Positions 4,519-62,534 of a stretch of 64,000 bases of DNA are shown here, in pieces. The stretch is from Shigella phage ESh24: the sequence record ON528734. One strand, 5' to 3'. How positions within the stretch are numbered: position 1 is the first letter of the stretch; every line of letters begins with the position of its first letter. The notes beneath the pieces are model-generated. The model had not been told where the DNA came from. It made no database searches and saw nothing but the letters and a program-made list of their open reading frames with translations. The position numbers were made by a program, and so were the translations under genes.

Positions 4519-4526
4519 TAATTCAA

Positions 4527-4549
4527 GGACTCCTTCGGGAGTCCTTTTT
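4527..4549 (+). terminator. intrinsic terminator hairpin (UUCG tetraloop) after soc
   Basis: GGACTCCTTCGGGAGTCC followed by T-run. Confidence 0.7.
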
Positions 4550-14423: not shown

Positions 14424-14684
14424 ATGAAATATGTTAATCGTTCTATCGCGGCATTAGTATTAGCAGTATCTTTAGTAGGATGTACTGATGCTGATAATGC
14501 AACCAAAGTTTTGTCTTCAAGTGGTTTTACTAATATTGAAATCACTGGATACAATTGGTTCGGTTGTTCTGAAAATGATTTCCAACATACTGGATTTCGT
14601 GCTATTGGACCTACTGGGCAGAAAGTAGAAGGAACAGTATGTTCTGGTCTGTTCTTTAAGGATTCAACTATTCGTTTTAAATAA
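14424..14684 (+). CDS. putative lipoprotein
   Basis: signal peptide plus lipobox LVGC. Confidence 0.5.
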   Translation: MKYVNRSIAALVLAVSLVGCTDADNATKVLSSSGFTNIEITGYNWFGCSENDFQHTGFRAIGPTGQKVEGTVCSGLFFKDSTIRFK

Positions 14685-14703
14685 AAGGCCTTCGGGCCTT
14701 TAG
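14685..14703 (+). terminator. intrinsic terminator hairpin
   Basis: AAGGCCTTCGGGCCTT + T. Confidence 0.6.
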
Positions 14704-16626: not shown

Positions 16627-16830
16627 ATGAAATCATATAAAGTAAATTTAGAACTTTTTGATAAAGCAGTTCATCGAGAATATAGAATCATTCAACGCTT
16701 TTTCGATATGGGAGAAGCCGAAGAATTTAAAAACCGCTTTAAAGATATTAGAGATAAAATTCAATCCGACACCGCAACTAAAGATGAATTACTAGAAGTT
16801 GCTGAAGTTATTAAGCGTAATATGAATTAA
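16627..16830 (+). CDS. hypothetical protein (rIIA.1 position)
   Basis: 67-aa ORF. Confidence 0.45.
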
Positions 16831-16840
16831 TGAGGAAATT

Positions 16841-19018
16841 ATGATTATCACCACTGAAAAAGAAACAATTCTTGGTAATGGTTCTAAATCAAAAGCATTT
16901 AGCATCACAGCATCTCCTAAAGTATTTAAAATTCTGTCATCTGATTTATATACAAACAAAATTCGCGCAGTAGTCCGTGAATTGATTACCAACATGATTG
17001 ATGCCCATGCTCTCAATGGAAATCCTGAAAAATTTATCATTCAAGTTCCTGGACGTTTAGATCCACGATTTGTTTGCCGAGATTTTGGTCCAGGTATGAG
17101 TGATTTTGATATTCAGGGTGATGATAATTCTCCTGGTTTGTATAATTCATACTTCAGTTCATCTAAGGCTGAATCTAACGATTTCATTGGCGGATTTGGT
17201 TTAGGTTCTAAATCTCCGTTTAGTTATACTGATACATTTAGTATTACTTCATATCATAAAGGCGAAATTCGTGGTTATGTAGCTTACATGGATGGTGATG
17301 GTCCGCAAATTAAACCTACATTCGTAAAAGAAATGGGTCCAGACGATAAAACTGGTATTGAAATCGTAGTTCCAGTTGAAGAAAAAGATTTTAGAAACTT
17401 TGCTTATGAAGTTTCTTATATCATGCGACCATTCAAAGATTTGGCTATCATTAATGGCCTTGACCGCGAAATTGATTATTTTCCGGATTTTGATGACTAT
17501 TACGGTGTAAATCCAGAAAGATACTGGCCTGATCGCGGCGGATTATATGCTATCTATGGCGGTATTGTTTATCCTATCGATGGTGTTATTAGAGACCGTA
17601 ATTGGCTAAGCATTCGCAATGAAGTGAATTACATTAAGTTTCCAATGGGTTCACTGGATATTGCTCCATCACGCGAAGCTCTTTCACTGGACGATCGCAC
17701 TCGCAAAAATATTATTGAACGAGTTAAAGAGCTTAGTGAAAAGGCATTCAATGAAGATGTAAAACGATTTAAAGAATCTACATCTCCTCGTCACACATAT
17801 CGTGAATTGATGAAGATGGGGTATTCTGCTCGAGATTATATGATTAGTAATTCGGTCAAATTCACGACTAAAAATCTGTCATATAAAAAGATGCAGAGCA
17901 TGTTTGAACCTGACAGTAAGTTATGTAATGCAGGAGTTGTGTATGAAGTAAATCTTGACCCTCGACTGAAACGCATTAAGCAAAGTCATGAAACTTCAGC
18001 CGTTGCATCAAGTTATCGTCTGTTTGGTATTAATACAACAAAAATTAATATCGTTATTGATAATATTAAAAATCGTGTTAATATTGTCCGTGGATTAGCA
18101 CATGCGCTAGATGATAGTGAATTTAATAACACTTTAAATATTCATCACAATGAGCGTCTTCTGTTTATTAATCCGGAAGTAGAATCGCAGATTGATTTAC
18201 TACCTGATATTATGGCAATGTTTGAAAGTGATGAAGTTAACATTCATTATTTGTCAGAAATTGAAGCTTTAGTTAAAAGCTATATTCCAAAGGTAGTTAA
18301 AAGTAAAGCTCCTCGTCCTAAAGCTGCTACAGCATTTAAGTTTGAAATTAAAGATGGGCGTTGGGAAAAAGAGGAATTATTTACACTTACGTCAGAAGCA
18401 GATGAAATTACTGGTTATGTAGCGTATATGCATCGTTCTGATATTTTCTCTATGGATGGTACTACATCACTTTGTCATCCATCTATGAATATTTTGATTC
18501 GTATGGCTAATCTTATTGGTATTAATGAATTTTATGTTATTCGTCCGCTTTTGCAGAAAAAGGTAAAAGAGCTTGGTCAGTGCCAATGTATTTTTGAAGC
18601 TTTACGTGATTTATATGTAGATGCTTTTGATGATGTAGATTATGATAAGTATGTAGGTTATTCAAGTTCAGCTCAACGATATATTGATAAAATTATCAAG
18701 TATCCTGAACTAGATTTTATGATGAAGTACTTCAGTACAGATGAAGTTTCTGAAGAATATACACGACTTGGTAATATGGTTAGTTCATTACGCGGTGTGT
18801 ATTTTAATGGTGGAAAAGATACCATCGGTCATGATATCTGGACAGTAACTAATCTCTTTGATGAATTATCACGTAATGCTTCAAAAAATAGTGATAAAAT
18901 GGTTGCTGAGTTTACCAAGAAATTCCGTATTGTTTCTGACTTCATCGGTTATCGCAGCTCTTTAAGTGATGATGAAGTTTCCCAAATCGCTAAAACTATG
19001 AAGGCCCTTGCGGCCTAA
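16841..19018 (+). CDS. rIIA: rIIA protein (lysis inhibition / Rex exclusion determinant)
   Basis: 725 aa, exact T4 rIIA length, followed by rIIB. Confidence 0.9.
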
Positions 19019-19029
19019 TAAGGAAAATT

Positions 19030-19968
19030 ATGTACAATATTAAATGCCTGACCAAAAACGAACAAGCTGAAATTGTTAAATTGTATTCAAGCGGTAATTA
19101 CACCCAACAGGAATTGGCTGATTGGCAAGGTGTATCGGTTGATACAATCCGTCGTGTTTTGAAAAATGCTGAAGAAGTTAAACGCTCTAAAGTTACTATT
19201 AGCGGTGATATTACAGTTAAAGTTAATAGTGATGTAGTTATTGCTCCAGTTGCTAAATCTGACATTATTTGGAATGCATCTAAAAAATTCATTTCGATTA
19301 CTGTTGACGGTGTAACTTATAACGCAACTCCTAATACTCATTCAAACTTCCAGGAAATTCTCAATCTGCTTGTAGCGGATAAGCTGGAAGAAGCGGCACA
19401 AAAAATTAATGTTCGTCGCGCTGTTGAAAAATATATTTCCGGCGATGTTCGAATTGAAGGTGGAAGCTTGTTCTATCAAAATATTGAATTGCGGTCTGGT
19501 TTGGTTGATCGTATTCTTGACTCGATGGAAAAAGGCGAAAACTTTGAATTTTATTTTCCGTTCTTGGAAAATCTGCTGGAAAACCCAAGCCAAAAAGCGG
19601 TATCTCGACTCTTTGATTTCTTGGTAGCAAACGATATTGAAATTACAGAAGATGGTTACTTCTATGCTTGGAAAGTAGTTCGCAGCAATTACTTTGACTG
19701 TCACTCAAATACCTTTGATAACAGTCCGGGTAAAGTAGTTAAAATGCCGCGTACTCGCGTGAATGACGATGATACACAAACTTGTTCTCGTGGTCTGCAT
19801 GTGTGTTCTAAATCTTATATTCGTCACTTCGGTGGTTCAACCAGCCGAGTTGTAAAAGTTAAAGTTCATCCTCGCGATGTAGTATCAATTCCGATTGATT
19901 ACAACGATGCTAAAATGCGTACCTGCCAATACGAAGTAGTTGAAGACGTTACTGAACAATTTAAATAA
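19030..19968 (+). CDS. rIIB: rIIB protein
   Basis: 312 aa, T4 rIIB length. Confidence 0.9.
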   Translation: MYNIKCLTKNEQAEIVKLYSSGNYTQQELADWQGVSVDTIRRVLKNAEEVKRSKVTISGDITVKVNSDVVIAPVAKSDIIWNASKKFISITVDGVTYNATPNTHSNFQEILNLLVADKLEEAAQKINVRRAVEKYISGDVRIEGGSLFYQNIELRSGLVDRILDSMEKGENFEFYFPFLENLLENPSQKAVSRLFDFLVANDIEITEDGYFYAWKVVRSNYFDCHSNTFDNSPGKVVKMPRTRVNDDDTQTCSRGLHVCSKSYIRHFGGSTSRVVKVKVHPRDVVSIPIDYNDAKMRTCQYEVVEDVTEQFK

Positions 19969-19981
19969 GGGCTTCGGCCCT
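19967..19981 (+). terminator. terminator-like UUCG hairpin after rIIB
   Basis: AGGGCTTCGGCCCTT. Confidence 0.55.
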
Positions 19982-19996
19982 TAACTAAGGAAAATT

Positions 19997-20191
19997 ATGT
20001 TAGGTTATCAAGCACGAGTAAAAGAAGAATACGATCAATTAATGCTCAAAATTAATGCACTGAGCAAATTTTTAGAAAGCGCAAAGTTTCTAACGGTTAG
20101 TGCAGTTGAGCAAGAACTTCTACTTTCACAGTTCATCTCAATGAAATCTTACGCAGAGTGTTTAGAAAAAAGAATTGCACAATTCAAATAA
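19997..20191 (+). CDS. hypothetical coiled-coil small protein
   Basis: 64-aa ORF bracketed by two GGGCTTCGGCCC hairpins. Confidence 0.4.
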   Translation: MLGYQARVKEEYDQLMLKINALSKFLESAKFLTVSAVEQELLLSQFISMKSYAECLEKRIAQFK

Positions 20192-20195
20192 AATA

Positions 20196-20218
20196 AGGGG
20201 CTTCGGCCCTTTTGTTTT
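20196..20218 (+). terminator. intrinsic terminator hairpin
   Basis: GGGGCTTCGGCCC + TTTTGTTTT. Confidence 0.6.
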
Positions 20219-20255
20219 AAGAGAAATTATGATTCCGACATAAAGGAAAGTTTAA

Positions 20256-20813
20256 ATGCAGAAAACAAATCCGGGTTTGCAGAGACTATTTCAGATTCCG
20301 ACATTTACCCTATCGAACAGTGACTTGACTAGTGAAATGAAGGTCAAAATTGCTGATACAGCAAGATACTCTTTAAAACAAAATCCAAATCAGGATAAGG
20401 CAGAAGTTATCGAAAGATGCCGTATCGCTGTGTACGCAGAGTTTTTTGTGGCAGATTGGCTAAGCGGATATGTCAATAAAGGCCAAGAAGATGTCGATGA
20501 TCCGTACACATATGCATGGGATGTTTTAGCACATCCAAAATACTGTGGGCTCCGTGTAGAAGTTAAGACACATCAAACTGACTCGCGTTGGATTTCGGTA
20601 ACAACGGGATGCAGCGGAGAGTATCCATATGGTTCTGGAATAAATCTAGGGCCCATTCTAAATCATCAAGTCGCTGACTGTATAATTATATTCAACACTA
20701 AAGAAATTCATCCAGGTGTCATCCAGTACACTCCGAAGTTCATCGGTGATAGAGAAGACCTTCGTAAGGTTGTAAGAAAAAGCAACTACAACGGATGGTA
20801 TCTTTCCATTTAA
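20256..20813 (+). CDS. denB: endonuclease IV DenB
   Basis: 185 aa, matches T4 denB length and position next to rIIB. Confidence 0.8.
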   Translation: MQKTNPGLQRLFQIPTFTLSNSDLTSEMKVKIADTARYSLKQNPNQDKAEVIERCRIAVYAEFFVADWLSGYVNKGQEDVDDPYTYAWDVLAHPKYCGLRVEVKTHQTDSRWISVTTGCSGEYPYGSGINLGPILNHQVADCIIIFNTKEIHPGVIQYTPKFIGDREDLRKVVRKSNYNGWYLSI

Positions 20814-20829
20814 AAAATTTCACAAAACG

Positions 20830-20859
20830 GTTTACATACCACAAGGACCGTGGTACTAT
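20830..20859 (+). promoter_or_regulatory. T4-type early promoter with conserved leader cassette
   Basis: GTTTAC 20830-20835, TGGTACTAT 20851-20859, then TATCAACTACGGAGGA RBS. Confidence 0.55.
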
Positions 20860-20887
20860 ACAATTATCAACTACGGAGGAGCGGAAA

Positions 20888-21151
20888 ATGAAATTTAAAT
20901 TTTATTACGCTAAACATAAAATAACTGATGAATTCGTGTCAGTTGAATATTCTAGCGATGATGAAGGTATGATTTATACTCGCTTAGGATTATCGCATTG
21001 GGAGTCTGATACGCCTTATTTTTCAACTCCCGAAGAAATTACACGCTTAGTTAATGGTCATATGAATGACCACTGGGATGTAATTCTTTCAGATAGTCTT
21101 AAAGCGGCTATTAATAGTAATGAAATGAAAATTGCTGAGATTGAACTATGA
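20888..21151 (+). CDS. hypothetical protein (ndd.x position)
   Basis: 87 aa from ATG 20888 after GGAGGAG. Confidence 0.4.
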   Translation: MKFKFYYAKHKITDEFVSVEYSSDDEGMIYTRLGLSHWESDTPYFSTPEEITRLVNGHMNDHWDVILSDSLKAAINSNEMKIAEIEL

Positions 21152-21393
21152 GTTCATTATGGTGGTGTTTTGTTTGGTTAATTAGTATTCCAGTAATTTG
21201 TTTAACATTTACTTTTGTGATGAGGTTATTATGAAAATTATGAATTCTGTACTTATTGCTTGCGCGTGGTGGGTTGCACAGGTTTCAGCGGTAGTAGTTG
21301 GTATTCACATTTATTACGAATATTTTTAAAAAGCTGTTTACAAGACTGTTCTTCCGTGGTACTATTACCCTATCAACTACGGAGGAACAGAAA

Positions 21394-21507
21394 ATGAAAA
21401 AGATTATTAAAGCTATATGGAATGTAGTTATAATACTAATAGTTTTGAGTATATTCCCAATCGTTTTAATGATTGATGTATTAAACGCTTACTTTGGATT
21501 TATGTGA
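21394..21507 (+). CDS. hypothetical small membrane protein
   Basis: 37-aa hydrophobic ORF after same promoter/RBS cassette. Confidence 0.3.
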   Translation: MKKIIKAIWNVVIILIVLSIFPIVLMIDVLNAYFGFM

Positions 21508-21514
21508 GGAAAAT

Positions 21515-21712
21515 ATGAAGCGTAAACGCAGTGCTTTTACATTTATTGAATGGTTTTTCGATAATATTTTTCCGGCTTTATTCATTTTCATGCTGATTTT
21601 TGCCTTAGGTTCAGTTGTAGTTGGAATCTATTTGATGGCGGTAGTCGGAATGGATATTCATCAAAATGGTTTAAAATCCGTAGTTGAAACAATTTGGAAT
21701 GGTGTAAAATGA
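21515..21712 (+). CDS. hypothetical small membrane protein
   Basis: 65 aa, one TM segment. Confidence 0.35.
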   Translation: MKRKRSAFTFIEWFFDNIFPALFIFMLIFALGSVVVGIYLMAVVGMDIHQNGLKSVVETIWNGVK

Positions 21713-22562: not shown

Positions 22563-22642
22563 TGAGTAATTTCCACAACGAACACGTGATGCAGTTCTAT
22601 CGTAATAATTTTAAAACTAAAGGCGTCTTCGGACGCCAGTGA
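22562..22642 (+). CDS. stp: Stp peptide (26 aa)
   Basis: [26 protein letters not shown], 26 codons, ATG overlapping ndd stop; matches T4 Stp as recalled. Confidence 0.8.
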
Positions 22643-22949
22643 GGAAAATATGGTTATTCTGGTTTTTTATTGAACTTATTACGGCTATTGTCTGTTCGGT
22701 TTGCTTCTTTTTAGGCATGTGGACCCCAGGTTCAGTATTCTTAAGTTTTCTGTTTATTGCCTGGGTGCTTTCTACTTCTGTTGGCTTACTTAAGATGATT
22801 AAAAATGATTAAGAAAATCTTGGGCTATTCATTAGCCCTTGCTATTTTATTAATAGCGTTATATTATGGAGTAATGTTCGGATTAATTCAAGTCGTGCTT
22901 TTCATTTCTGATGTTATTATGGCACTACATTCACTAGTATGGTAAATTT

Positions 22950-27982: not shown

Positions 27983-28762
27983 TTAAATCCAGGAACCATA
28001 GATCGTGCCTGTTGCACCCCATGATGGCGAAGAACCGAATACCGCTCTACCTGGAGCACCACCGCCGGATCTAGATAAGTGATTACCCCATCCATCTCCA
28101 CCCCGACCTCCAGCATCACCGCCATTGCCACCGCCAAATTGACTTGTATTACCACCGCCGCCTGGACCGTCATAACTAGCATTGCCACCAGGCCAATTAA
28201 CACCACCGCCACCGAGACCAAATGGTCTGCCACCGCCACCACCAGCTGTAGCATACGCGTCCCAGCTATTCTTTAACGACACTGCACCACCGCCACCGCC
28301 GCCTGATGCAATAACGCCATAGTTCCAAATGCGGAGTCGTCCACCAATATCATTTTGGATTACGTCGCCACCATTAGTGCCTGGGCTTCCATTTACGCTA
28401 CCATTACCACCTCGGCCCCACATATGAACACCACCATGAATATTCAAAGTAACATATTCGTTAGGAGTATCACCATACATGAAGAATAAAGGAACGTCTT
28501 TAGAATATGATACTAAGTTGCCTGTGATATTAAACACTATAGGAGCGCCACCGGCTTCAAAACAACGGTCACGGAACCATTGACCATTAAAGTTATGGTC
28601 TGCTCCAAGAGTGTGAATAATTTCTCTTGAACGTCCAGCGAATTGTGACATCCAAGATGGGTTCCCTAGACGTAATTCTCTAGAAGCTGCTGACATCCAA
28701 CGTTGACCTGTTTCAGCCACTGCTGATGTTCCAATCCAACCAGGTATTCCTACTACTGCCAT
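27983..28762 (-). CDS. 38: gp38 receptor-recognising adhesin (T2-type, glycine-rich motifs)
   Basis: 259 aa; conserved N-terminal region then poly-Gly blocks ([30 protein letters not shown]) separating variable segments. Confidence 0.8.
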
Positions 28763-58460: not shown

Positions 58461-58475
58461 GTTGAGGACTCCTTC

Positions 58476-58499
58476 GGGAGTCCTTTTTTATTTTCCAAA
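58476..58499 (+). terminator. intrinsic terminator (same hairpin as after soc)
   Basis: GGACTCCTTCGGGAGTCC + TTTTTTATTTT. Confidence 0.7.
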
Positions 58500-58546: not shown

Positions 58547-58596
58547 CTTACACAAACAAAAGAAAAGGGCTTCGGCCCCTTACTGAGGAAAATATT

Positions 58597-62300: not shown

Positions 62301-62485
62301 AAGCTTACTTAGAAACAATTGTCATTGCTCAAAAAGAAGGTGGAGATGTTTCTACTTCTGTATCACAAGTCATTCTCGAATTTGTAGATGCATATGCTTA
62401 TAATAAATTCACAGAAACATTTGATGCCTATGAAAAAGGTCCAAAGTTTGAAATATACCGTACTCTCTTACCACTAGATTACTAA
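62297..62485 (+). CDS. hypothetical protein
   Basis: 62-aa ORF followed by AAGGCCTTCGGGCCTT hairpin. Confidence 0.4.
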   Translation: MKAYLETIVIAQKEGGDVSTSVSQVILEFVDAYAYNKFTETFDAYEKGPKFEIYRTLLPLDY

Positions 62486-62501
62486 AGGCCTTCGGGCCTT
62501 T
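62485..62501 (+). terminator. intrinsic terminator hairpin (same sequence as at 14685)
   Basis: AAGGCCTTCGGGCCTT + T. Confidence 0.6.
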
Positions 62502-62534
62502 AATTTTATAAATAGAATAAACACTAGAGAGGAT

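Follow-up and report, generated by a model that had tools for sequence, protein, structure and literature searches.

The region between rIIB and denB of Shigella phage ESh24 is, with a probability of roughly 80% for the explanation as a whole, an ordinary locus in which the punctuation of T4-type early and middle genes stands next to the scar of a lost gene. According to this joint reading, the small gene denB.1 is real, the two UUCG hairpins on either side of it are RNA punctuation, and an 11-mer repeated around the denB start is a relic of a DUF7418 gene. The window analyzed (64,000 nucleotides of sequence record ON528734, to which all coordinates refer unless stated otherwise) stems from a T4-like phage (Tequatrovirus); its rIIB is 97–99% identical to rIIB of Tequatrovirus. 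The flanking genes had been correctly named in the initial annotation: rIIB (+ strand, 19030–19968) encodes 312 aa with the C-terminal end EQFK-stop, and denB (+ strand, 20256–20813) encodes endonuclease IV (185 aa). An Rfam scan of positions 18900–20900 at E ≤ 1 gave no matches, and a scan of the + strand between 19746 and 20830 for promoter-like sites was empty.

The 64-aa ORF on the + strand (19997–20191) is present as previously described. It corresponds to T4 denB.1 (alias ORF64), which is already annotated in T4, and its synteny is kept in the six examined genera carrying the gene. Residues 4–61 match the Pfam profile PF21825 (crAss001_48-related; phrog_774) with 68.7 bits (gathering threshold, 24.8 bits; E = 4e-19). 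An AlphaFold2 model of DenB.1 (mean pLDDT 95.6) has helices at residues 4–27 and 36–62, and a two-helix hairpin protein is predicted. The protein was detected by proteomics in T4 (PMC9697503, supplement 4), with 'middle' as its class in the T4 omics data (PMC9697503). denB.1 is a real, translated accessory gene. A sequence search of the PDB with DenB.1 yielded only a chance match (IF1, E = 0.5), and Foldseek against the PDB only generic helical hairpins (E > 0.8), from which no function is assignable. A large protein-database search returned close relatives only; scans of viral contigs found 5 loci at first and 27 when the scan was alignment based. In the literature, a search on 'denB.1' retrieved nothing substantive, and 'crAss001_48' was mentioned in no paper found. 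A candidate MotA-dependent middle promoter inside denB.1 (AATGCTCAA, near 20041) was dropped, as the match was poor by eye.

That two nearly identical UUCG hairpins bracket the mini-gene, as noted before, was borne out with small coordinate offsets. On the + (coding) strand, each has the loop sequence C-TTCG-G. The window contains the 12-mer GGGCTTCGGCCC at three positions (19969, 20198, and 58567), where none was expected from shuffles. GC-rich C(UUCG)G hairpins are found 10 times in the window, all of them intergenic and most of them 0–7 nt past a stop codon, and identical UUCG hairpins occupy unrelated sites (4525 and 58464; 14684 and 62483). With so little freedom in the sequence of a GC-rich UUCG hairpin, and with identical ones at unrelated sites, the likeness of two such hairpins is by itself weak evidence of a common origin.

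Hairpin 1 (TAAGGGCTTCGGCCCTTA; + strand, 19966–19983) consists of a 7-bp stem and a C(UUCG)G tetraloop (TAAGGGC-UUCG-GCCCUUA). It begins with the rIIB stop codon as its first three bases and ends 14 nt before the denB.1 ATG. The RNA energy is predicted to be −10.9 kcal/mol (z = −2.8; computed fold only). The tail after the hairpin reads AACTAAGGAA, and the terminator scan finds it on the − strand only. As no U tract follows the stem in this phage (CCCUUAACUAAGG), hairpin 1 is not a canonical intrinsic terminator here. It is kept, with compensatory stem changes, in Tequatro-, Dhaka-, Gapriver-, Kanagawa-, Marfa-, and Winklervirus, the six examined genera that carry denB.1. In the alignment of 15 distinct sequences, 86.7% of the cells are paired, a fraction that drops to 63–64% when the 3′ partners are slid by one column in either direction. 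Three inner pairs of the stem alternate between G-C and A-U; 15 double-change cells were observed versus 4.6 in shuffles, and none of 500 shuffles reached 15. The loop is UUCG in 13 of the 15 distinct sequences, and its distance to the denB.1 ATG is always 17–26 nt.

The lack of a U tract makes it most likely that RNA polymerase reads through hairpin 1. The hairpin probably acts on the mRNA, in either or both of two ways. It may form a very stable fold that would block 3′-to-5′ exonucleases and thereby protect the upstream rIIA–rIIB message. It may also free the ribosome-binding site of denB.1, which is A/U-rich, of the RegA type, and begins 2–3 nt downstream, from competing structure. Some Kanagawa-type sequences, and those of the Marfa and Winkler types, do have a U tract, so that hairpin 1 may be a partial terminator and its role may vary among lineages. 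Read-through and stabilization at hairpin 1, and termination at hairpin 2, are functions that we infer from sequence, conservation, and annotation.

Hairpin 2 (AAGGGGCTTCGGCCCTTT; + strand, 20195–20212) starts 4 nt past the denB.1 stop, has seven pairs, and is followed by TGTTTT. Together with its U tract (TTTTGTTTT, 20210–20218), it spans 20195–20218 on the + strand as a predicted intrinsic terminator after denB.1. Its RNA energy is predicted to be −12.8 kcal/mol (z = −2.9; again, computed fold only), and the terminator scan picks it up on the + strand. Four GenBank records annotate it, as a stem_loop in the T4D record X75802 and as a terminator in GiZh, Kha5h, and G2133. Hairpin 2 and the adjoining UUUUGUUUU are predicted to form an intrinsic terminator, or an attenuator, at the end of denB.1. 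Since no promoter-like site lies between hairpin 2 and denB, the latter is most likely expressed by read-through. Among the other examined genera with denB.1, only Winklervirus has a hairpin after the gene, and its sequence is different; in Dhaka-, Gapriver-, Kanagawa-, and Marfavirus, denB.1 is followed by no hairpin and abuts the DUF7418 start (TAAAATG). By this comparison, hairpin 2 is lineage-specific.

The denB.1 translation initiation region (TAAGGAAAATTATGT; + strand, 19986–20000) is, over 15 nt, identical to the initiation region of rIIB at 19019–19033. It is A/U-rich and unstructured, includes the AUG, and has a 5′ A tract, the features by which RegA sites are recognized (PMC3014915). 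RegA operators are described for rIIB (AAAAUUAUGUAC) and gene 44 (AAAUUAUGAUU) (PMC3014915). The string AAAAUUAUGUUA within the exact copy of the rIIB region makes the denB.1 initiation region a putative RegA site by sequence likeness, and the initiation region of the relic ORF upstream of denB has the same string as the gene 44 operator.

The spacer between hairpin 2 and denB, the 11-mer pair included, is best understood from alignment of the spacer to Sf23, another Tequatrovirus, which retains the gene lost here, and to T4, L018, and L020. In Sf23, a 109-aa ORF between denB.1 and denB contains both 11-mers, and T4 'ORF37' matches this ORF at either end with 100% identity. The intact gene belongs to DUF7418 (PF24193; phrog_2237); intact homologues score 115–139 bits, 223 phage records in the collection searched keep the interior of the gene, and its presence or absence varies within Tequatrovirus. 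In ESh24, the 5′ relic is a mini-ORF, MIPT-stop (ATG ATT CCG ACA TAA; + strand, 20229–20243), which holds 11-mer copy 1 (20231–20241). The 3′ relic (+ strand, 20244–20323) is read in the +1 frame of denB, ends in SDSDIYPIEQ with a TGA at 20321–20323, and overlaps the denB ribosome-binding site and the first 22 denB codons. Because ESh24 keeps four N-terminal codons and, in another frame, the C-terminal end, the spacer is a pseudogene relic, not an intact PF24193 ORF. The gene has lost 213 bp from its middle, a deletion shared with T4, and then another 19 bp in ESh24; the junctions lie at the 5-nt microhomologies AAAAG and TGATT, not at the 11-mers. On this reading, an ancestral DUF7418 gene would have occupied the place between denB.1 and denB, extending at its 3′ end into denB, and would have lost its interior through microhomology-mediated deletions. 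Such interior deletions would have brought the two copies of GATTCCGACAT, from the N- and C-terminal ends of the gene, to within 63 bp of each other.

The 11-mer GATTCCGACAT occurs exactly twice, at 20231–20241 and at 20294–20304 (63 bp from start to start, with a 52-bp gap). A pair flanking the denB start (20256) thus exists as the initial annotation had it, with the positions given there (∼20229 and ∼20291) slightly off. It is not statistically unusual: when one mismatch was allowed, 22 of 100 shuffles gave at least two matches, and exact 11-mer pairs within 100 bp number 6 in the window versus 2.9 ± 1.7 in random sequence. The copies correspond to the codon stretches GDSDIK and SDSDIY of the decayed DUF7418 gene; copy 2, within the 3′ relic, also represents denB codons 13–17 (QIPTF). 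Closely related phages have variants of copy 1 (GACACCGACAT, GATTCAGACAT). In Dhakavirus, which was the only further genus in the comparison, the corresponding DNA shows no relation to copy 1, and the counterparts of the two copies (GAACGTGATAT versus GATGCCGACAT) are less alike than the 11/11 within Tequatrovirus. This full identity within Tequatrovirus is attributed, without proof, to chance or gene conversion. As judged from these comparisons, the GATTCCGACAT copies have no function of their own. The notion that copy 1 is a duplication of the denB 5′ end was rejected for the DUF7418 relic after the alignment to Sf23.

Three other readings of the locus were weighed against this explanation. 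It had been proposed that the GATTCCGACAT direct repeats might serve recombination (deletions) or the control of denB, perhaps together with a replication origin close by. This is already largely refuted, and we regard it as extremely unlikely. Although the copies match exactly and lie on both sides of the denB start, such a pair is unremarkable, and copy 1 is gene relic, variable in close relatives and without a DNA-level counterpart in Dhakavirus. If the two copies recombined, the product would be an in-frame DenB beginning MIPTF, similar to the M-PSF with which SP18 DenB is annotated to start. Both copies are kept in all of the best 25 matches listed, none of which has a recombinant junction joining them, and in Sf23-type phages a single ORF contains both copies, 276 bp apart. 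A regulatory variant could invoke pairing of TTCC in copy 1 with GGAA of the denB ribosome-binding site, a weak 4-bp helix. The description of the region as deletion prone holds: many classical laboratory deletions fall in the 'D region' from rIIB to gene 52 (PMC12115623; PMC6071114), and the spacer has natural deletions, but the latter do not lie at the 11-mers. The sequenced deletion NB5060 in T4 GT7 joins at AGCACGAC, a different 8-bp repeat inside gene 52.1 and rIIB. The proximity of a replication origin could not be upheld either. In the published list of T4 origins, oriA lies close to soc and gene 56 (PMC3016281). Its annotated T4 position, 16763, is ∼17.7 kb away from the junction of rIIB with denB.1, so that the locus is not near oriA. 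It is also very unlikely that the mini-ORF MIPT-stop and T4 ORF37 are kept since their translation delivers ribosomes to the denB start, a coupling that would derive from the overlap of DUF7418 with denB. In Klebsiella phage Roth51 and in phages of the Dhaka, Mosig, Winkler, and Sf23 types, the DUF7418 ORF does overlap the annotated denB start by ∼65–80 nt; the deletion in T4 preserves the frame, so that ORF37 continues across the denB start; the relic ORF of ESh24 has the RegA-type initiation region AAAUUAUGAUU and stops 12 nt before the denB ATG. However, an in-frame deletion has a one-in-three chance of arising by accident, and the relic frame comprises 37 codons overlapping denB in T4 versus four codons ending upstream of it in ESh24, so that no single arrangement is conserved.

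The remaining alternative takes denB.1 as a facultative cassette, gained and lost by recombination of the flanking modules of hairpin and ribosome-binding site, in analogy to a PeSL mini-circle lacking its promoter. PeSLs (promoter-early stem-loops) are mobile regulatory cassettes of T4-like phages (Arbiol et al, 2010; Comeau et al, 2014; PMC4122927). We consider this possible but unlikely. denB.1 is absent from Mosigvirus JM10 and Klebsiella phage Roth51, which have a single hairpin between rIIB and the next gene: rIIB is followed by one C(UUCG)G hairpin, a U tract, a ribosome-binding site, and ATGATT, the DUF7418 start. This junction consists of the left half of the Tequatrovirus rIIB/denB.1 spacer, joined to the right half of the denB.1/DUF7418 spacer. 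Among the best-listed Tequatrovirus records, none has a one-piece rIIB–hairpin–spacer junction without denB.1. No recombinant junction joining the two hairpins was found among the best 25 matches listed, which were ordinary two-piece matches, though rare recombinants may exist beyond these; one-piece matches in the junction searches for hairpins and 11-mers are explained by the similarity of denB.1 and rIIB at their 3′ ends. The denB.1 flanks share 30 identical nucleotides in Sf23 (TGAACAATTTAAATAAGGGCTTCGGCCCTT, a stretch that takes in the final four codons of either upstream gene) and 14 nt in ESh24; hairpin likeness alone, as said, is weak evidence of common origin. PeSL elements stand beside indels in this D region (ndd.4/.5, T4 versus PST; PMC4122927). 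Neither spacer here contains a promoter, and the modules are thus not PeSLs as defined. The idea of an insulated cassette survives insofar as the hairpins bracket denB.1 and lie at gene-module boundaries; the double bracket is specific to Tequatrovirus and not a general architecture, as denB.1 lacks the following hairpin in Dhaka-, Gapriver-, Kanagawa-, and Marfavirus. With the same low expectation, the rIIB–denB interval may be seen as a miniature hyperplastic region in which promoter-less modules of stem-loop and RegA-type site act as recombination joints for insertion, excision, or swapping of denB.1 and DUF7418. If so, the PeSL shuffling model would extend to promoter-less elements, and hairpin 1 would be both an RNA element and a joint. 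The presence or absence of denB.1 and DUF7418 at hairpin-marked joints bears on how small accessory genes are shuffled in T4-like phages.

The preferred reading, punctuation plus gene relic, means that the locus matters little beyond annotation, its striking look being that of standard T4 punctuation with a pseudogene scar; denB.1 and the UUCG hairpin type are already known. What it explains are the denB.1–denB spacer and the previously unexplained T4 'ORF37', both as relics of a DUF7418 gene. The hairpin between rIIB and denB.1, covarying across six genera, offers a clean natural test case for non-terminating UUCG hairpins in phage mRNAs.

Compared with PeSLs, the modules at this locus share the order of a stem-loop followed by a ribosome-binding site and a start codon, the location in a hyperplastic region, direct repeats around a small accessory ORF, and coincidence with gene presence or absence between relatives (denB.1 across genera, DUF7418 within Tequatrovirus). 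Unlike PeSLs, they have no sigma-70 −35/−10 promoter between stem-loop and ribosome-binding site, and the spacers from hairpin to the next ATG (14 and 44 nt) are too short. True PeSL-like repeats with promoters occur just downstream, at 20831–20893 and 21337–21399. Like the microhomology deletions of the T4 rII–D region (NB5060, saDelta9, and rIIPT8), the two natural deletions of the spacer fall at short direct repeats, of 5 nt here and of 8 nt at the NB5060 junction of T4 GT7; the compared junctions use neither the 11-mers nor the hairpins. With intrinsic terminators, hairpin 2 shares a GC-rich stem directly followed by UUUUGUUUU and the terminator annotation in related GenBank records, its termination being predicted only; hairpin 1, without a U tract, differs from the canonical form. 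The hairpins also compare with the C(UUCG)G hairpins of T4, which, according to PMC4371310, were first found in T4 intercistronic mRNA (Tuerk et al, 1988). Here as there, a UUCG loop closed by C-G tops a GC-rich stem located between cistrons, on the mRNA-sense strand, and in many copies. Nothing material differs, and hairpins 1 and 2 are two instances of this class, to which are added the conservation of hairpin 1 with covariation in six genera and the restriction of hairpin 2 to its lineage.

Over 2.2 kb around the locus, the window is 96–97% identical to many Tequatrovirus (T4-like) genomes, with Escherichia phage JY01 as the closest match, and the + strand carries, in this order, rIIA (16841–19018), rIIB (19030–19968), a 64-aa ORF (19997–20191), and denB (20256–20813). 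The ORF is the annotated T4 gene denB.1 (NP_049888 in NC_000866; "ORF64" in the older T4 record D16359). The two nearly identical UUCG hairpins said to bracket it exist: hairpin 1 (TAAGGGC-TTCG-GCCCTTA; 19966–19983; RNA fold −10.9 kcal/mol, z about −2.8) at the rIIB/denB.1 boundary and hairpin 2 (AAGGGGC-TTCG-GCCCTTT; 20195–20212; RNA fold −12.8 kcal/mol, z about −2.9) after denB.1. Among the features singled out by the initial annotation, the hairpins alone exceed chance; the 12-mer GGGCTTCGGCCC common to both has three copies in the window (the third at 58567–58578) and none in shuffles. The observation was real, and the features of the rIIB-denB locus are already known: the C-G-closed UUCG tetraloop was first found in T4 mRNA (PMC4371310), and the hairpins themselves are a known T4 feature. 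In the T4 records, hairpin 1 has one G fewer than in the window (both AF158101 and D16359); for hairpin 2, the T4 reference AF158101 has GGGCTTCGGCC, one C short, and the independent record D16359 the perfect GGGCTTCGGCCC. Such differences may reflect variation between strains or GC-compression errors from older sequencing.

Hairpins of the GC-rich C(UUCG)G type number ten in the window, eight of them on the + strand and two on the −; all are intergenic, most of them 0–7 nt past a stop codon. One kind has a U tract attached and is terminator-like (e.g., 4525, 58464, and 20195); the other has a ribosome-binding site within a few bases downstream (e.g., 19966, 22622, and 58567). The rIIA/rIIB junction (19002–19033) is laid out like the spacers of denB.1, with a GC hairpin, AGGCCCTTGCGGCCT, over the last rIIA codons and the stop, followed by TAAGGAAAATTATGT, a 15-nt identity to the denB.1 initiation region (19986–20000). 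Another initiation region, GTGAGGAAAATATG, is exactly repeated at two gene starts (21504–21517 and 22639–22652), the second copy following the UUCG hairpin at 22622–22637, which shows the same punctuation by a hairpin plus a stereotyped ribosome-binding site. Near-identical long UUCG hairpins also recur far apart, (A/G)AGGACTCCTTCGGGAGTCCTT at 4525–4546 and 58464–58485, and AAAGGCCTTCGGGCCTTT at 14684–14701 and 62483–62502; either such modules have spread or few sequences are available to stems of this type.

Conservation of hairpin 1 was assessed in rIIB/denB.1 spacers gathered from GenBank phages and IMG/VR contigs (Tequatro-, Dhaka-, Gapriver-, Kanagawa-, Marfa-, and Winklervirus). Every spacer collected contained a C(UUCG)G hairpin 17–26 nt upstream of the denB.1 ATG, with stems varying between GGGC/GCCC, GGAGGC/GCCTCC, GGGGC/GCCCC, GGGGAC/GTCCCC, and GGAGAC/GTCTCC. 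When the 15 distinct sequences were aligned, 86.7% of the cells were paired, which fell to 63–64% with the 3′ partners slid by ±1 column. Three inner pairs change from G-C to A-U on both sides, and 15 double-change cells were observed versus 4.6 in shuffles (0/500). The loop is UUCG in 13 of the 15 sequences and UUUG or UCCG in the other two; one more contig, outside this alignment, has a shortened CUUG-type loop. These pairing and covariation data show hairpin 1 to be a conserved structure in the RNA sense. Marfa-, Winkler-, and some Kanagawa-type sequences have a U tract behind it; those of Tequatro-, Dhaka-, and Gaprivervirus lack one. Hairpin 1 may act as a barrier to exonucleases or a stabilizer of the upstream message, hold the adjacent ribosome-binding site unstructured, or serve as a weak attenuator. 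In T4 omics data (PMC9697503, supplement 4), rIIB RNA falls in the early class and the RNAs of denB.1 and denB in the middle class, which loosely fits some attenuation between rIIB and denB.1.

Hairpin 2, followed by TTTTGTTTT, was detected by a terminator scan; the 1994 T4D record X75802 labels it a stem_loop, and the annotations of phages GiZh, Kha5h, and G2133 call it a Rho-independent terminator. It is a predicted terminator, and it is lineage-specific: no hairpin follows denB.1 in Dhaka-, Gapriver-, Kanagawa-, and Marfavirus, where the denB.1 stop abuts the next start (TAAAATG), and the one in Winklervirus has a different sequence. No promoter-like site was found between hairpin 2 and denB in a scan of the window, so denB expression would probably depend on read-through past hairpin 2.

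The protein between the hairpins matches Pfam PF21825 (crAss001_48-related; E = 4e-19) and has remote homologues in crAss-like, Providencia, and Sinorhizobium phages. Since its AlphaFold2 model predicts two long antiparallel helices (mean pLDDT 95.6), calling it a coiled coil is fair; a search for its structural neighbors returned none that was informative.

The 11-mer GATTCCGACAT does occur twice around the denB start, as exact copies at 20231 and 20294. Statistically, the pair is unremarkable: at least two near-matches occurred in 22 of 100 shuffles, and the window holds six exact 11-mer pairs no more than 100 bp apart, random sequence giving 2.9 ± 1.7. Several exact 11-mer pairs, 27–85 bp apart, come from a cluster of CCACCGCCACC-type repeats at 28201–28298, probably a coding repeat that is Gly-rich (GGTGG, other strand) or Pro-rich.

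The other genera examined carry an ORF of 89–100 aa directly upstream of denB, behind denB.1 where present and behind rIIB in Mosigvirus and Klebsiella phage Roth51 (the Marfavirus record does not annotate it, but the sequence contains it). In most of these records, the ORF reaches at its 3′ end, in a different frame, past the annotated start of denB, and the three homologues tested (Sf23, a Dhakavirus, and a Kanagawavirus) all matched Pfam DUF7418 and phrog_2237. Some members of Tequatrovirus have retained the gene: Shigella phage Sf23 has a 109-aa ORF at this position, the interior of which is present in 223 phage records. Both copies of GATTCCGACAT lie inside the Sf23 ORF, 276 bp apart; the copy close to the N terminus encodes GDSDIK, the one close to the C terminus SDSDIY. 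In T4, an in-frame deletion with AAAAG microhomology at its junction has taken out 213 bp of the interior; the remnant, the 37-codon "ORF37" (D16359), matches the Sf23 protein at both ends with 100% identity. The window has lost 19 bp more, between two TGATT repeats, giving ATG ATT CCG ACA TAA. Copy 1 varies in close relatives (GACACCGACAT and GATTCAGACAT in the compared phage sequences L017 and L018, respectively), and the corresponding Dhakavirus codons show no relationship to it in DNA sequence. Copy 2 doubles as denB codons 13–17 (QIPTF) and is constrained for that reason. Given the DUF7418 origin, the variability of copy 1, and the denB constraint on copy 2, the repeat is a relic, a pseudogene scar with no sign of a function of its own. 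The proposal that it is a recombination or regulation signal does not survive, the copies being codons of a decayed gene.

The rIIB-denB interval is indeed deletion-prone, lying within the classical nonessential "D region" between rIIB and gene 52, where many laboratory deletions map (PMC12115623; PMC6071114). One deletion endpoint was compared: in T4 GT7 (KJ477686), which carries NB5060, T4 position about 165262 (gene 52.1) is joined to about 168508 (inside rIIB), as seen against wild-type T4 (164500–168903). The junction falls within an 8-nt direct repeat, AGCACGAC, rather than at the 11-mer or hairpins, and the deletion takes about 3.26 kb, with the flagged stretch lost in its entirety. In searches for 11-mer × 11-mer and hairpin × hairpin recombinant junctions, the best 25 rows were all normal two-piece matches. 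The supposed proximity to a replication origin was wrong: the annotation places T4 oriA at 16763, near soc and upstream of gene 56 (PMC3016281), about 17.7 kb from the locus.

Whether denB.1 is itself an insulated cassette, shuffled at its hairpin spacers like the promoter-early stem-loop (PeSL) cassettes of T4-like phages, was considered. Mosigvirus JM10 and Roth51 lack denB.1; between rIIB and the ATGATT of the DUF7418 gene, they have a single C(UUCG)G hairpin, then a U tract and a ribosome-binding site. When junctions were aligned, spacers preceding the DUF7418 gene (Mosigvirus, Roth51, Sf23, and the second spacer of the window) consisted of hairpin, U tract, and AATTATGATT, and those preceding denB.1 of hairpin, without U tract, and AATTATGTTAGGTTA; by this split, the Mosigvirus junction resembles an "empty site" in which the left part of Tequatrovirus spacer 1 meets the right part of spacer 2. 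In Sf23 (L044, the compared sequence, 1150–1420), the denB.1 flanks share 30 identical nt, TGAACAATTTAAATAAGGGCTTCGGCCCTT, which include the hairpins and span the last four codons of rIIB and denB.1 (both ending EQFK*), suggesting gene conversion or duplication between two intergenic modules. However, neither flanking spacer has a promoter, the second hairpin is missing in four other denB.1-bearing genera, and identical UUCG hairpins also stand at unrelated sites, so that such shuffling appears unlikely. The bracket of hairpins is real; the insulated cassette survives only as a modest evolutionary hypothesis.

Compared with the PeSL model of T4-like phages (PMC4122927), the likeness would be the modular shuffling, and the difference the lack of a promoter in the denB.1 spacers. 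Downstream of denB, a 46-nt direct repeat (85% identical; 20848–20893 and 21354–21399) flanks a small ORF whose end is at 21151; in front of both copies stands the same promoter-like site (TTTACA-17-TACTAT with an upstream TG), and both end in GGAGG..ATGAAA. Regions 20831–20893 and 21337–21399 look like a pair of true PeSL-type cassettes of promoter plus ribosome-binding site, resembling those described at ndd.4/.5 in T4 versus PST.
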